The notes beneath the pieces were generated by a model. The model ran no database searches and was not told where the DNA came from. It saw nothing but the letters and a program-made list of their open reading frames with translations. From a virus: 64,000 nt of DNA. Made by a program: the position numbers and the translations under genes. Positions 2,638 to 40,295 of this stretch are shown here, piece after piece. The stretch is from IMG/VR virus record IMGVR_UViG_2545824693_000007, positions 925-64,924 of that record; one strand, 5' to 3'. The first letter of the stretch is position 1, and each line of letters opens with the position of its first letter.

Positions 2638-2875
2638 TCCACATCATTCCTTTTAATTAGTTTATTTAAAAGACCGATTTTATTTTAATCAAAATAAACC
2701 ACCAAATATATACCCCCAAACACCAAAATTTCATAAATGTAAAGTTATAACCATACAGGATACCATTGAGGAGTAGCATTAAATGATTCTTCAGATTCTG
2801 TACTAAAAATAAATTTTTCGAATCGTTTGTCTCCATTGCTCTCCTCAAAAGCCCCTGATCTAATGATTCTTTCAT

Positions 2876-3238
2876 TTATTTGTCTTCATCTTTTATATGT
2901 TGTAACCCCCATTCAAGAGAAAATTTTGCATCATATAACTCATTGAGCCAATTTTGCGATGGATTAGAATTAGTTCTAATCGTCATATTGGCAGATACAT
3001 CATGTAGCGCTCTTGAATAGTTATTAAAATCATAATCATCTGCAATAGCAGTTTTTTCATATTGGTTGGCATTTTTAAGAGTATCTTTTAAGTTTTTCTT
3101 GAACACAGTTAACATTCTTTGTGCTTCTTGTTTTACTTCTTCATTCATTGGCTTATTTTTTCTTATCAATTCTGTAATCTCATCAATTGACTCGATAAAA
3201 AACTGTAAGTTCTGTTTATAAATTTGCTTATTGCTCAT
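2876..3238 (-). CDS. Hypothetical protein (yotI-like size and position)
   Basis: 120-aa ORF with RBS. Confidence 0.6.
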   Translation of the reverse strand: MSNKQIYKQNLQFFIESIDEITELIRKNKPMNEEVKQEAQRMLTVFKKNLKDTLKNANQYEKTAIADDYDFNNYSRALHDVSANMTIRTNSNPSQNWLNELYDAKFSLEWGLQHIKDEDK

Positions 3239-3336
3239 GATAATTCATCCCTCTATTCTTCTATTATATACAATTAAAATTATATCACGATTGACTCGTT
3301 TCTAAATCCTAACCCTTTCTAAATGAAATCAACACT

Positions 3337-3528
3337 TTATATAGTATGATGAAAATAAATCGATTCATTTTTGTATACAAATCCAATATCGCCATCATCT
3401 TCATGAAACATATTACACGTCAATTTATTCCCATTTTCCTCGTTTACTTCGACTGTCATGTTTTCAAAATTTTGCTTACCAATTTGGACTGACACAATAC
3501 CATGTTGTGTATGATATTTAAACATCAC
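3337..3528 (-). CDS. Hypothetical protein (yotC-like)
   Basis: 63-aa ORF directly downstream of yotB, as in SPbeta. Confidence 0.6.
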   Translation of the reverse strand: MMFKYHTQHGIVSVQIGKQNFENMTVEVNEENGNKLTCNMFHEDDGDIGFVYKNESIYFHHTI

Positions 3529-3563
3529 TCTTCCTCACTTCTGAATAAAATTAGAATTTCATT

Positions 3564-4391
3564 TCAAATCTCAAAGGTTTTGACCTCAAACTTTTTATAG
3601 GTATCTACTTCATTACCTGGTATCTCGTTTACACTCGGATACTTATCGTAGTCGTATGGATACCCAATACAGTTCATGTGAAAGCTTGTCCCCTCATGAT
3701 TAAACTCAGTTTGCAAATGTTCATGCCCACAAATCCAATGTTTAGCATTAATGAATGGTACATCGACCATATAGCAGCTATTAGGTTCAAATGGAGAAAA
3801 AGGATTATGAACAGGAGGGACATGAGAAACAAACACATCGATGTGAGTTTTTTCGAGCGTTTCATACCAATCCATCGAACCTTTCCACATTGCTCTTACT
3901 CCATCTTCCTTACTGTAACCATTAATGCTAATGTAATTTGAGTCATTAGAGACTCCTTTGAAGAAATCCCATCCTTCAATTCCTTTTGGCAAATACCACA
4001 TAGCATCTCCTGCAAAGACTTTCCCTTTGAAAGTATCCATTGACTTGATCAACGGAGTCACATTCTTTATGTCATCAGCCTTTTTGACTAAATCATTCAC
4101 CCTGCCTAATGAATCAGAGTATTTTCTTTTTTGACTTTTACTGAGTAAATAAAGATCATGATTTCCATATGTGAAATAAACCTTCTCGTACTGTTTTGCT
4201 ACTTCATCTAAAACCCAAATGGCTTGTTGATTCCATTCAGTAAAATCACCAGCAATGATTAGTACCTCTCCATTGCCGTTTGAAATTAGCCTCTTAACAA
4301 TCTCCCTCGTTCGCTTCTCCCATTTGAGCTGGTTATTACTCCAAGGAATCCAATGATTGATATGGAGATCTGATACATAGTCAATTTTCAT
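3564..4391 (-). CDS. yotB: Calcineurin-like metallophosphoesterase
   Basis: SDLH, IAGD, GNHD, SHVPP, GHEH motifs; 275 aa. Confidence 0.9.
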
Positions 4392-36529: not shown

Positions 36530-37420
36530 ATGAAAAAAGTTTTTTTTACTTTTATTTTGTTAATATTACTAGCTAGTTGCACTAATAACAGCTCCCAAAT
36601 TTCTTTTTCAAAAAGCGACTGCGAAAAAAATTGGGCACTTTGCGCTGTTTTCCCAAATGAAAAAGTCAAATTCTATTCACCTAAAGAACCTATAAAGGTA
36701 GCATTATTGGATAGTGGAGTAAGTAGTTCTCTATCAATTTTTAAGAATAGTTCAATAATTTCATATGATGCTATAAACAATAAGCCTACTACCATAGATT
36801 CTTTAGGTCATGGTACAGCCATAGCCAGTATCTTATTGGCTCCTGCTAATAAGAAAACAGTTCATGGCGTATCACCTAAAGTGAAATTATTTGATGTAAA
36901 GGTACTAAACGATAAAGGAGGTGGTGACGTTGATAATGTAATTAACGGAATCGATTGGAGTATCAAGCAGGATGTTGACATCATTAATCTTAGCTTTGGT
37001 TTTCAAAAAGATGACAAAAAGTTAAAACATGCAATTGATAAAGCAATCGAGAAAAATATTATAGTTATCGCTTCTGCCGGCAATACATTAGGTCTTTCAA
37101 CAGATTATCCAGCAAAGTATCAAAATGTGATATCTGTTTCTTCTGTTGATAAAAACCTAAGAAGAGATAAATTTGCAGCTAAAGGTAAGGTTGACTTTGT
37201 TGCACCTGGCGTTCAAGTTCCTGTTTTAACTCCTTCCGGTAAATTAGAAACTGTTGATGGCACATCATTTGCAACGGCTTTTGTCACAGGTATAGTATCC
37301 AATATCCTATCTAAAAATCCAGAGTTTGAAAGGGAAGATGTCTTGAATTTTTTAAAGAGCACAGCAAAAGATTTGGGGAAGAAAGAAGATTATGGTTACG
37401 GGTTAATACAATATAACTAA
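36530..37420 (+). CDS. S8 subtilisin-like serine protease, lipoprotein
   Basis: Lipobox LASC17; D61 (LLDSG), H94 (GHGT), N185 (SAGN), S246 (GTSFA); no propeptide. Confidence 0.93.
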   Translation: MKKVFFTFILLILLASCTNNSSQISFSKSDCEKNWALCAVFPNEKVKFYSPKEPIKVALLDSGVSSSLSIFKNSSIISYDAINNKPTTIDSLGHGTAIASILLAPANKKTVHGVSPKVKLFDVKVLNDKGGGDVDNVINGIDWSIKQDVDIINLSFGFQKDDKKLKHAIDKAIEKNIIVIASAGNTLGLSTDYPAKYQNVISVSSVDKNLRRDKFAAKGKVDFVAPGVQVPVLTPSGKLETVDGTSFATAFVTGIVSNILSKNPEFEREDVLNFLKSTAKDLGKKEDYGYGLIQYN

Positions 37421-37431
37421 GAAAAAGGAGA

Positions 37432-38328
37432 ATGAAATTGAAATATTTTATTAGCTTTTTGTTAGCTGTTTTTGTATTTTATAACGTAGGGACAAGTTTT
37501 TCCTTTGCAACAACAAATCAAACACAAAACAATTATCAAGATGTAATTAATAAGGAGCAAATAGAATCTGAAACAGAAGATTTCTTTGGTGAGTCTGTCA
37601 ATGGTAATGATGTTGCATTAGAAAGCCAAGTCGATGGTAATGAAGCAACTATTCAAACAAAGATTGAAACAGATGATTTATCGGTTGATGGTGAATTAGA
37701 ATTAAATCTAGAAACTAGTGACATGATTGTTTCCGCAGAAGCAACAGATGATAATGGTACACTTTTTCAAGGCGATTTTGATGTAGAATTACAAGATGTA
37801 AATGATGATGGGGATTTTATTGCAACTTTAACTGATATTGAAACAGGAGAACAATTTAAAGTAAATACTGCTGAAGTTAAAGCCTCATGGTATCCTTTAG
37901 TTGTAATTGCTATTACTGTTGCACGTATTGGTATTAAACAAGCTATTAAGAAATTTGGAAAATCAAGTGTTAAAAAAGCAACTAAAAAGTATGGTAAAAA
38001 AACCTCAGCGTCAAAAGCTGTACGAAAAGTAAATATGTCGAAATTAGATTCTCATTACAAAAAGCACAAAAAAGAGTTCGGTAATATCTCCAAATCTCAA
38101 TATTTGAATAAAGCACGAACCTTTTTAGGGAAAGCTACTAGCAAAACAGTTCTCCAAAAAAGAAGCAAGAAAAAATTCAATGGTAAATATCGTTACTATA
38201 AGTATAATAAAAAGACCAATGAATTTTTAGCAGTAGAACGACAAAAGGATAAGGATGTGATTATTACATATTTCAAGCCAAAACATCCAAATAAAAAAGC
38301 TGGTTATGAATATTATAAACGGCAATAA
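37432..38328 (+). CDS. Secreted polymorphic pro-toxin (SAR2788-like N-terminus, RNase-like C-terminal domain)
   Basis: Signal peptide; acidic beta-rich prodomain; amphipathic cationic helix; HYKKHKKEFG...YL..A..F...YNKKTNEF...IITYFKP. Confidence 0.75.
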   Translation: MKLKYFISFLLAVFVFYNVGTSFSFATTNQTQNNYQDVINKEQIESETEDFFGESVNGNDVALESQVDGNEATIQTKIETDDLSVDGELELNLETSDMIVSAEATDDNGTLFQGDFDVELQDVNDDGDFIATLTDIETGEQFKVNTAEVKASWYPLVVIAITVARIGIKQAIKKFGKSSVKKATKKYGKKTSASKAVRKVNMSKLDSHYKKHKKEFGNISKSQYLNKARTFLGKATSKTVLQKRSKKKFNGKYRYYKYNKKTNEFLAVERQKDKDVIITYFKPKHPNKKAGYEYYKRQ

Positions 38329-38358
38329 TTAAATAAAATAATAAATGGGGGATCAATA

Positions 38359-38718
38359 TTGGAAAAAGAATTATATTCCTGTCTAGTATGCGGATATAAA
38401 GGATTAAATGAAAAACTTTTAGATAATGGCGAGTATCAAAAAACATTTGAAATTTGTCCATGTTGCAATTTTGAATTTGGCTACAGTGAAGATCATGATG
38501 TGAGTTTAGGCTTTATTGTAACTCCAGATCATTTAATTGAGGCTGCATTTCAATTGTATCGAAAACAATGGATCGAGGCTGGGATGAAAATTGCTCATCC
38601 TGAAGAAATTCCAGAAGATTTAAAAAATGGGGAGTGCTTAAAATTTGAAGTTTTAATGAAACAATTGAAAGCCCTAAATCTTGACATGGAAAATCTCGAT
38701 ATTGATGGCATTAATTAA
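38359..38718 (+). CDS. Cys-rich CPCC-type immunity protein
   Basis: CLVCGY...EICPCCNFEFGY...YRKQWI; acidic; directly after the toxin. Confidence 0.7.
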   Translation: MEKELYSCLVCGYKGLNEKLLDNGEYQKTFEICPCCNFEFGYSEDHDVSLGFIVTPDHLIEAAFQLYRKQWIEAGMKIAHPEEIPEDLKNGECLKFEVLMKQLKALNLDMENLDIDGIN

Positions 38719-39010: not shown

Positions 39011-39039
39011 TTGATTTTTATCCAAATATTTAATATAGT
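39011..39039 (+). promoter_or_regulatory. Putative sigma-A promoter
   Basis: TTGATT-17-TATAGT. Confidence 0.45.
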
Positions 39040-39083
39040 TAGCAATATATTAAATTAATGGTTATTAAAGGAGGAGTAAAGAA

Positions 39084-39569
39084 ATGAAGAAAAAACTTAT
39101 TTCATTTATCATGGTGTTCACGTTAGCTGTGCTGGCTGTATCAGTTGTTTCTCCTGGCTATGCAAGTGCAGCGGAAAGTAAAAAAGTACCTGTAGTTCAA
39201 AATAGCATACAGGCTCCTTTAGCTTCAAATATGAAAACCGATATTGCTAAAATCCAGTCAAAGCTTGAGACTCCTGTAGCTGCAAATTCTAAAGTACATA
39301 CACAGGGTATTCCTTTCGCTAAACAAATATTAGTAAAAGCACTTAGGGTTGGTGGTCCCGCTTTAGGAACCCTTATTAAAAAGATCCCATATAAATGGGC
39401 TCAAAAAGCTGGAGATGCTTGTTCTAAGTGGGGACACAAAGCCGCGGACGTTATAGATGAACTTACAAATTTCGGAGAAACAGCCGTTACTGTGGCATTA
39501 GTGAAAGCTGGAATTCCATTAGCTGATGCACAGTTAATTGCGAAGGTTGTTGTGTTCTTTTTGCTATAA
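39084..39569 (+). CDS. Secreted pre-pro bacteriocin-like protein
   Basis: Signal peptide ending ASA; pro-region; amphipathic helical C-terminal region starting GIPFAKQILVKAL. Confidence 0.6.
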   Translation: MKKKLISFIMVFTLAVLAVSVVSPGYASAAESKKVPVVQNSIQAPLASNMKTDIAKIQSKLETPVAANSKVHTQGIPFAKQILVKALRVGGPALGTLIKKIPYKWAQKAGDACSKWGHKAADVIDELTNFGETAVTVALVKAGIPLADAQLIAKVVVFFLL

Positions 39570-39578
39570 CTATACATT

Positions 39579-39620
39579 AAAACAAAAGAGTGAGGCTTAT
39601 AACCTTCACTCTTTTGTTTT
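39579..39620 (+). terminator. Terminator hairpin between the secreted protein and the membrane protein
   Basis: AAAACAAAAGAGTGA...TCACTCTTTTGTTTT. Confidence 0.7.
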
Positions 39621-39642
39621 AATTAGGTAAGGAGAGATCACC

Positions 39643-40164
39643 ATGAATCTGCTTGTTATGACGTTATCAATTTATCTTTTGTTTCTCATCGTCTTTTTTA
39701 TTTTTATGTACAGAGGAGAAAAGAAAGAAGCTGCAGAAAAAAACACAAATGAAAAATTTTTATTATCTACAGTAATAGGAGCTTTGGTTTTATCACTAAT
39801 TCCTACTGCAGTCATAATGGGGATAATCTTATTTGCAACAGGATCAGCAAATGTACTTGTAAGCTTCTTTGAATTAGAAATAGGATTCAATCAGATTGTT
39901 ATTATGAGTGTGTGTATGGTTGTTTATTCTTTTACTTTTGATAATATTTTTGTGGCTGTTGGAAGGCACCTCATTGGAGATAACTTTTTCAAGTTTATAT
40001 TTGCCTCATTGTTTAGGTTTTTATTTATTTATATAGTGGGTATCTTGTGTTCAATTGGGAGTAGCGACAACTTTAAATTATCATTAGGATTAACTTTATT
40101 TTTTCTTTTATTAGAATGTATTTTCCCTAAAAAGCCTGATCGTACTCAGAATATAGAATCTTAA
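39643..40164 (+). CDS. Multi-pass membrane protein, candidate immunity protein
   Basis: About 5 hydrophobic helices in 173 aa. Confidence 0.7.
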   Translation: MNLLVMTLSIYLLFLIVFFIFMYRGEKKEAAEKNTNEKFLLSTVIGALVLSLIPTAVIMGIILFATGSANVLVSFFELEIGFNQIVIMSVCMVVYSFTFDNIFVAVGRHLIGDNFFKFIFASLFRFLFIYIVGILCSIGSSDNFKLSLGLTLFFLLLECIFPKKPDRTQNIES

Positions 40165-40270
40165 GGGCGGACATATCATGACCGACAAAGAAAGAGAAGA
40201 ACTTGCTGCGAATTTAATGCATATGAAAAAAATGAACAAAATGATTAAGAAGGTACTGAAGTAGTAGATA

Positions 40271-40295
40271 TAAAGCAGGCTCTAAGCCTGCTTTA
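40271..40295. terminator. Bidirectional terminator
   Basis: TAAAGCAGGC-TCTAA-GCCTGCTTTA between convergent genes. Confidence 0.75.

Follow-up and report, generated by a model that had tools for sequence, protein, structure and literature searches.

A mobile secreted-protein/membrane-protein gene pair in an SPbeta-like Bacillus prophage, a candidate Sec-dependent bacteriocin cassette related to YqxI

Introduction

Two small adjacent genes of a Bacillus prophage raise the question of whether they encode a toxin and the protein that protects its producer. They are located in the window analysed here, a stretch of 64,000 nucleotides (positions 925 to 64,924 of the IMG/VR virus record IMGVR_UViG_2545824693_000007), which is part of a 76-kb provirus record with the gene content of an SPbeta-like Bacillus prophage. 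The cassette consists of a gene for a secreted protein (39084–39569), a hairpin, and a gene for a membrane protein (39643–40164). A preliminary description of this DNA took the pair for a pore-forming bacteriocin-like toxin with membrane immunity, possibly matured by a neighbouring S8 protease. The best explanation that we can offer is an autonomous two-gene competition unit, carried as cargo by the prophage. In its specific form, this would be a bacteriocin-like toxin that is exported by the general secretory (Sec) pathway, trimmed by proteolysis and active on membranes, accompanied by a polytopic immunity protein and by a hairpin that sets the ratio of the two products; judged from sequence, this is the leading candidate, but it is held tentatively. 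The new points are the link with the YqxI protein of B. subtilis and the conserved gene–hairpin–gene layout.

Architecture of the two proteins

Both open reading frames (ORFs) were found where they had been described, encoding 161 and 173 aa. The secreted protein starts with MKKK, followed by a hydrophobic core and the predicted cleavage site YASA↓AE. Read from the sequence, this is a standard signal of the Sec/signal peptidase I type, as had been claimed, and it has no lipobox cysteine. The linker that follows (aa 30–74) is predicted to be disordered, with a predicted local distance difference test score (pLDDT) below 50, and is basic, with an isoelectric point (pI) of 9.7. A 57-nt (19-codon) in-frame indel at 39226–39282 distinguishes the alleles of the window, B. 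swezeyi and B. haynesii from those of B. velezensis and B. siamensis; it is also visible as a skip in two RNA libraries.

The boundary between the pro-region and the mature part had been placed after KVHTQ, and the conservation of homologues begins exactly there. In an alignment of six homologues with identity down to 61% (alignment A3), it runs from T73/G75 to the last residue and includes 42 invariant columns. The ratio of non-synonymous to synonymous substitution rates (dN/dS), determined against four alleles, is 0.05–0.11 in the 87-aa C-terminal domain and 0.28–1.17 in the linker, supporting the view that the predicted mature domain is the selected part of the protein. This domain has a pI of 9.6 and contains 11 K+R against 6 D+E. 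Its AlphaFold2 (AF2) model, constructed from a 36-sequence alignment, has four to five helices (pLDDT 74; predicted template modelling score 0.62), in line with the helical domain proposed earlier.

The membrane protein contains five hydrophobic segments, which agrees with the roughly five transmembrane (TM) helices of the preliminary description; the charges of its loops fit an N-out/C-in topology. Its dN/dS is 0.10–0.22. The features of the cassette are collected in Table 1.

Table 1. Coordinates of the cassette features in the window
Feature	Position	Strand	Basis
Gene of the 161-aa secreted pre-pro protein (YqxI-like superfamily)	39084..39569	+	ORF; homologues; hhalign to YqxI
Sec signal peptide, aa 1–29, predicted cleavage ASA↓AE	39084..39170	+	Sequence features
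Variable linker/pro-region, aa 30–74, predicted disordered	39171..39305	+	pLDDT, indel, dN/dS
Conserved 87-aa cationic helical C-terminal domain, candidate active part	39306..39566	+	Conservation, dN/dS, AF2 model
Shine–Dalgarno sequence AAAGGAGGAG, 7 nt before the ATG of the secreted-protein gene	39067..39076	+	Read from sequence
Gene of the 173-aa 5-TM protein, candidate immunity protein	39643..40164	+	ORF; hydropathy; homologues after secreted gene
Shine–Dalgarno sequence AGGAGAG of the membrane-protein gene	39630..39636	+	Read from sequence
Intergenic hairpin, intrinsic terminator/attenuator-like	39576..39623	+	dG -25.6, z -5.9; conservation
Sigma-A-like promoter candidate TTGATT-17-TATAGT	39011..39039	+	Consensus scan, 9/12 positions
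Hairpin AAAGCAGGC-TCTAA-GCCTGCTTT between convergent genes, likely cassette end	40272..40294	.	Read from sequence

Conservation of the gene pair and of the intergenic hairpin

Each of the five close loci has, after the secreted-protein gene, a gene homologous to that of the membrane protein, with identities of 93, 92, 89, 56, and 27%. The pair recurs in B. swezeyi, B. haynesii, B. velezensis/B. siamensis, Aquibacillus, and on a 4.7-kb rolling-circle plasmid. The contig of this Rep_1 plasmid carries little besides the replication gene and the pair; its break falls precisely within the hairpin loop between the genes, which makes them neighbours on the plasmid circle. In distant loci (Paenibacillus, Laceyella, Streptomyces, and others), the gene after the secreted one encodes a partner of 147–199 aa with three to five TM segments. 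Clustering of the neighbouring genes of 30 loci gave no recurring protease, transporter or regulator, and the pair therefore appears self-contained. These observations support a conserved, co-inherited and mobile unit; the preliminary description had allowed that homologues might prove to be rarely paired, and this was not seen.

The strong hairpin noted earlier between the genes has a 20-bp stem with a G+C core, an A-tract and a U-tract (dG -25.6 kcal/mol, z -5.9); none of 200 shuffled sequences folded as well. It is kept with small changes in the Bacillus alleles, and hairpins of unrelated sequence, with stems of 11–25 bp, lie between both genes in 12 of the 15 loci, including the G+C-rich Streptomyces locus. 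A search of Rfam returned no match for it. Thus, the hairpin is supported as a conserved design feature of the cassette.

RNA contigs provide some indications on its operation. In two metatranscriptomes from different studies, contigs of the secreted-protein gene stop at 39592 and 39608, inside the hairpin. This is a weak hint at an abundant monocistronic transcript of the first gene with partial read-through, and it is only a hint because assemblers also break at palindromes. One library (X16) contains a separate low-depth contig over 39981–40195, and another (X19) a single contig across both genes, by which a single transcript is not proven; uncovered parts in the X15 and X16 libraries are no evidence of absence. 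As to the separate promoter that had been proposed for the cassette, the candidate site matches the consensus at 9 of 12 positions, and the contig starts, at 39078 in one metatranscriptome and at 39075 in a B. velezensis-like contig spanning both genes, fit a transcription start just upstream, short of proof. The second side of this claim is less favourable: promoter-like sites in the region are not enriched (12 against 10.2 in shuffled sequences).

Orphan copies of the membrane-protein gene

The proposal that the membrane protein confers immunity has its best indirect evidence in copies of its gene that stand without the secreted partner. One such orphan, 86% identical to the membrane protein and with no family gene upstream, was found in Bacillus sp. 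WMMC1349 next to a SUKH-1/SMI1_KNR4 immunity gene (L053, 5001–5504). About 9 kb away is a pair of a second subfamily (162 aa and a 185-aa 5-TM protein), with another SUKH-like gene and a PT-TG-like fragment beside it (L054, 1270–2386). A second orphan, 75% identical to the partner on the plasmid, stands alone in Bacillus sp. NPDC093026. Immunity genes standing as orphans in toxin/immunity islands are a typical trait of bacteriocin and polymorphic-toxin systems. By association, the surroundings of the orphan genes fit an immunity role of the membrane protein, and to this extent the candidate proposed in the preliminary description stands. The WMMC1349 island lies at approximately 2.549–2.566 Mb (G403:C7), and a truncated family gene is present elsewhere in this genome (L055).

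Family, distribution and relationship with YqxI

The secreted protein belongs to a group that we call the YqxI-like superfamily; it is uncurated and is defined here through an alignment (A5) of a C-terminal helical domain of about 80–100 aa, with the protein of the window as seed of the profile. A word-based search revealed only six clusters (B. swezeyi, B. haynesii, B. velezensis, the protein of the window, the Logan plasmid contig, and Aquibacillus). Against 1.84 billion representatives (clusters at 50% identity), the profile of the domain gave 36 matches at E<=1e-3, of which 34 are real; the other two, one of them an ankyrin-repeat protein, are spurious. Among the named sources are Alteribacillus, Laceyella, Paenibacillus, Brevibacillus, and Streptomyces. 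When the class Bacilli was sampled evenly, a match was present in 29 of 401 genomes. All 34 clusters share a signal peptide, a variable spacer and a helical domain at the extreme C-terminus; an N-terminal hydrophobic segment is present in every full-length member, and the tail past the domain is 0–2 residues in the main family.

As the preliminary description had assumed, the proteins correspond to no named family: no member matched a model of Pfam or NCBIfam, and both libraries were without a significant match for the membrane protein of the window as well. A subthreshold match to the TrbC/VirB2 pilin family of Pfam (16 bits against a cut-off of 27.9, E 0.012) and one to DUF4179 were discarded. 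Searches with two models against solved and viral structures (PDB by VIA-align and Foldseek, BFVD, and a PDB sequence profile) produced no credible match; the best VIA-align Z-scores against PDB were 6.1 and 5.1, to polymerases and a plastid protein. The AFDB clusters and the ESM Atlas returned only uncharacterised proteins sharing the same terminal domain.

The sole structural match in Swiss-Prot is YqxI of B. subtilis (UniProt P24812). Aligned by hhalign, the family profile and YqxI match with a probability of 96.6% (E 5e-10, 77 columns), and on this sequence evidence YqxI is a remote homologue of the C-terminal domain. A remote member (locus L028) falls in the YQXI_BACSU cluster and is followed by YqxJ. 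In both systems, a Sec signal, a linker and a terminal helical domain succeed one another; both are prophage cargo (the skin element in the case of YqxI), and both have a small partner gene next to them. The differences are the identity of only about 22–32%, an insert in the YqxI domain, and the partner: in the YqxI-type branch it is a soluble, apparently cytoplasmic protein of about 105–165 aa, and YqxJ itself is a soluble coiled-coil protein rather than a 5-TM one. According to the account in PMC6527527, which cites Antelmann 2003, YqxI is found in the extracellular proteome of B. subtilis at a level that depends on HtrA post-transcriptionally. This relative is truly secreted, which we count in favour of the toxin interpretation. 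Since YqxI has no known function, the homology carries over no mechanism.

Proposed mechanism and comparison with known systems

The cassette belongs to no curated family, and it is by analogy with Sec-dependent pro-bacteriocins that its logic may be understood. The Sec pathway would export the product of the first gene, and the signal peptide would be removed at the predicted site. The short disordered linker would probably be trimmed by general extracellular or quality-control proteases, a dedicated maturation enzyme being seemingly unneeded. The freed 87-aa domain, cationic and partly amphipathic, would act on the membrane of neighbouring Gram-positive cells, while the 5-TM protein with its small outward loops would protect the producer. 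With the terminator-like hairpin in place, toxin mRNA would be abundant and read-through mRNA for immunity less so. What the analysis shows is the anatomy, the conservation of the pair and of the hairpin, the pattern of selection, the mobility and the orphan membrane genes; we infer the toxic effect, its membrane target, the second cleavage and the protection of the producer.

The nearest parallels are closticin 574 of Clostridium tyrobutyricum and PAMP of Propionibacterium jensenii, which PMC10888436 and PMC5756557 describe as Sec-exported pro-proteins with 82 and 64 active C-terminal residues, respectively. Common to both and to the protein of the window are a general signal peptide, an N-terminal pro-part and a cationic C-terminal peptide, which in the described cases is freed extracellularly by non-dedicated proteases. 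The secreted protein has both a signal peptide and a conserved C-terminal domain, the release of which is presumed. In contrast to the cassette, activity is proven for closticin 574 and PAMP, and neither a conserved 5-TM partner nor an intergenic hairpin is reported for either. A by-eye comparison with the published 34-aa fragment of closticin (PMC7690686) revealed no similarity, and a degenerate DNA pattern derived from a published closticin-like primer matched unrelated genomes only.

Bacteriocins of the saposin fold, leaderless or circular such as AS-48, are likewise small, cationic and all-helical with Gly/Ala-rich turns, and their producers have small membrane immunity proteins. The cassette differs in Sec export and the long linker, and it has none of their maturation genes. 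In the structural check suggested earlier for aa 75–161, a helical domain was modelled, and a saposin-like fold was not recognised in the model of pLDDT 74. Saposin D (Z 3.6, with an rmsd of 3.0 across 60 residues) and the top solved structure (Z 5.1) both match it at a level that counts as noise among helical bundles.

Several observations weigh against the toxin interpretation and call for caution. No fold match to saposin-like or other bacteriocins was obtained in the structure searches. The domain is only moderately amphipathic: two helices have hydrophobic moments of 0.50 and 0.56, and the others are below 0.35. The second cleavage is not established because the motif at the junction is weak (Q in 25 of the 37 members, an enrichment of 0.087 over 0.052). 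The distant membrane partners have diverged too far for their mutual homology to be demonstrable; an all-against-all comparison of them was too biased by TM composition to claim it. For a membrane-active toxin, a soluble partner of the YqxJ type is unexpected. The knock-out of yqxI has no biofilm phenotype (bioRxiv 10.64898/2026.06.23.734000), and an antibacterial assay of any family member was not found in the literature searched.

An envelope complex as the main alternative

Some of the same observations suit another explanation, which we consider unlikely and yet the most serious competitor: the exported helical domain could dock on the 5-TM partner at the outer membrane face and, with it, alter the cell surface, for example in superinfection exclusion or some other contribution to prophage or plasmid fitness, without being toxic. 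It would then act in the way of exclusion proteins that are built of a signal peptide, a spacer and a small helical domain. In favour of this, the cassette travels as cargo of prophages, plasmids or islands. The hydrophobic last helix of the domain and the conserved adjacency of the genes would fit a physical complex, and the limited amphipathicity also speaks for it. The location of YqxI directly behind the lysis genes in the skin prophage (bioRxiv 10.64898/2026.06.23.734000) points the same way. Against this, the secreted protein carries neither a lipobox nor another anchor, and the recovery of YqxI from the medium mentioned in PMC6527527 suits a free protein. The presence of orphan membrane genes in toxin/immunity islands is better explained by immunity, and no phage genes are among the called neighbours at the Streptomyces and other chromosomal loci. 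Neither protein of the cassette matched PADLOC or PHROG.

The lack of PADLOC and PHROG matches bears on the cargo status as well. Among 50,697 phage records, no DNA or protein homologue of the cassette was detected, which we counted toward cargo status. In the window, the cassette is the second of two plus-strand cargo modules flanked by blocks of minus-strand phage genes, and its opposite orientation supports this status.

The proposed maturation by the neighbouring S8 protease

The first of these modules (36530–38718, +) encodes an S8 lipoprotein protease, a secreted toxin of the SAR2788/BetaH type and a small Cys-rich protein, as determined by Pfam and NCBIfam; the toxin matches NCBIfam NF038340 at 4e-58. 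This module is an S8-PTS/ABP system (protease AbpP, toxin AbpT, immunity protein AbpI) of the kind reported in PMC9424270 and bioRxiv 10.1101/2025.04.13.648598. The preliminary description had proposed that its protease also removes the pro-region of the cassette protein at HTQ↓G and could in this way serve two toxins.

Some observations favour this idea. The S8 gene ends 1.66 kb upstream of the cassette on the same strand. The ABP protease cut its own toxin after Gln159, just before a cationic amphipathic central helix (bioRxiv 10.1101/2025.04.13.648598), and the junction Q74/G75 followed by helix 1 resembles this site; the mild enrichment of Q at the junction agrees with it. Both proteins are Sec-secreted pro-toxins, by prediction in the case of the cassette, from Gram-positive bacteria of similar kinds and in the same prophage.

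The distribution of S8 genes is a different matter. Loci were searched with the S8 protein of the window: the close homologues, the whole plasmid, Streptomyces, Laceyella, and two metagenome contigs with flanks of 4–8 kb, and then 21 loci with flanks extended to as much as 8 kb either way, or shorter at contig ends. None of the loci with 4–8-kb flanks, including all five closest homologues and the plasmid, has an S8 gene, and only one of those 21 does (G303). Within approximately 8 kb of a family gene, an S8 gene was therefore found in 2 of about 31 loci, the window and G303, and it was missing in about 29. The co-occurrence check suggested in the preliminary description thus came out against a general link, whereas in S8-PTS/ABP systems the co-occurrence is invariable. 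The G303 locus (L056, G303:C3:1-5500) has its family gene at 2696–3424 (-) and, 1.2 kb downstream, an AbpP-type S8 frame (596–1459, -, 4e-62), with an insertion sequence (IS) transposase (1528–2445) in between. A divergent 4-TM gene (3376–3846, +) is also present, and the locus looks IS-eroded.

Substrate recognition adds to these difficulties. ABP proteases are reported to cut only their cognate BetaH toxins, with recognition through the BetaH fold, and the BetaH loop was modelled in the active site (bioRxiv 10.1101/2025.04.13.648598). The BetaH domain is a seven-stranded sheet with a helix at its centre; the secreted protein of the cassette lacks it (no match to NF038340/SAR2788), has a 45-aa linker predicted to be disordered, and shows no nuclease or other enzymatic domain in Pfam and NCBIfam. 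The N-fragments of ABP toxins are acidic (reported pI of about 4.1), unlike the basic pro-region, and the immunity candidate of the cassette is a membrane protein. The S8 gene of the window, moreover, heads a complete tricistron of its own with the BetaH toxin and its immunity gene (PMC9424270). Because the BetaH domain is lacking, the pro-region is basic and most family members have no S8 neighbour, we consider S8-dependent maturation improbable; as a general mechanism it is not supported, and the idea of one protease for two toxins mostly lacks support. More likely, the two modules are independent weapons sharing one island.

Signalling, circularisation and a wider class as improbable readings

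A signalling function, in which the secreted protein or a fragment of it would be the signal and the membrane protein would sense or relay it in the manner of an anti-sigma factor or regulator, is hardly probable. It draws on the partner in one distant locus (L023, 1797–2387), which matches the Pfam family YrvL (PF14184), a "regulatory protein", with 30 bits against a threshold of 27. It also draws on a feature search of the Atlas, in which YrvL is the named family nearest to the membrane protein of the window (score 0.80, a lead only), and on Rap genes that recur near four loci. However, a Pfam search with the membrane protein itself gave no YrvL match at E<=1, and hhalign of its family to the YrvL-type partner yielded a probability of 0.1%, so this assignment was rejected. 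The protein has no cytoplasmic output domain, and no regulator gene is conserved beside the pair. The folded 87-aa domain under strong purifying selection is also unlike known peptide signals of Bacillus. SepA-like small membrane proteins were likewise near the partner in the Atlas search, again as a lead only.

At the other extreme, a far-reaching version of the toxin reading, for which we see as little chance, would make YqxI-like proteins a large and so far unrecognised class of bacteriocins that are secreted by Sec, released by proteolysis and active on membranes, each with its own polytopic immunity gene. Their hairpin-attenuated cassettes would move across prophages, rolling-circle plasmids and islands in Bacillota and Actinomycetota, and here the AbpP-type protease would cut HTQ↓G as well, arming two toxins.

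Least probable of all is a head-to-tail circularised bacteriocin, with the leader removed, the ends ligated and the membrane protein taking part in maturation: the domain does always lie at the exact C-terminus with hydrophobic end residues, is helical, cationic and Gly/Ala-rich as in that class, and weakly resembles a pilin family that includes cyclised pilins, but the true Sec signal and long linker are unlike the leaders of that class, 87 aa exceeds the 58–70 aa of known members, and Pfam and neighbour clustering revealed no DUF95/SpoIIM, ATPase or other cluster gene at any locus. What probability these readings leave falls to something else.

Implications

If the two genes are a toxin/immunity pair, they represent a new sequence family among the few known Sec-dependent pro-protein bacteriocins. 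This would be the first functional lead for YqxI, a secreted protein that has been without an assigned function for two decades, and the same lead would apply to approximately 7% of the sampled Bacilli genomes and to the Streptomyces members. It would also mean that antibacterial weapons independent of one another can accumulate next to each other in SPbeta-like prophages. If the secreted protein is not a toxin, the two genes still form a widespread, conserved pair of a secreted and a membrane protein. In either case, the gene–hairpin–gene layout provides a simple signature by which further cassettes can be searched for.

Neighbouring sequences

Directly after the membrane-protein gene is a 28-aa ORF, MTDKEREELAANLMHMKKMNKMIKKVLK, at 40179–40265, followed by the convergent-gene hairpin listed in Table 1. 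The B. velezensis-like RNA contigs lack 40175–40269, and this ORF is thus specific to the allele of the window.

Within a few kb of the cassette in several Bacillus loci (the flanks of L003 and L005, and L052) there are Rap genes (RapH_N/TPR), some followed by small ORFs in the Phr position, which fits regions of mobile-element cargo.

In the AbpT-like toxin of the first module (37432–38328), a central helix at residues ~150–195, containing SWYPLVVIAITVARIGIKQAIKKFGKSSVKKATKKYG, is loosely similar to helices 1–2 of the family, which contain IWASITKKAVQKALRYGG and LIKRIPYKWADKAG. The comparison scored 2.6 bits, which was treated as not significant; judging by the sequences, the likeness may reflect convergence of cationic amphipathic helices.

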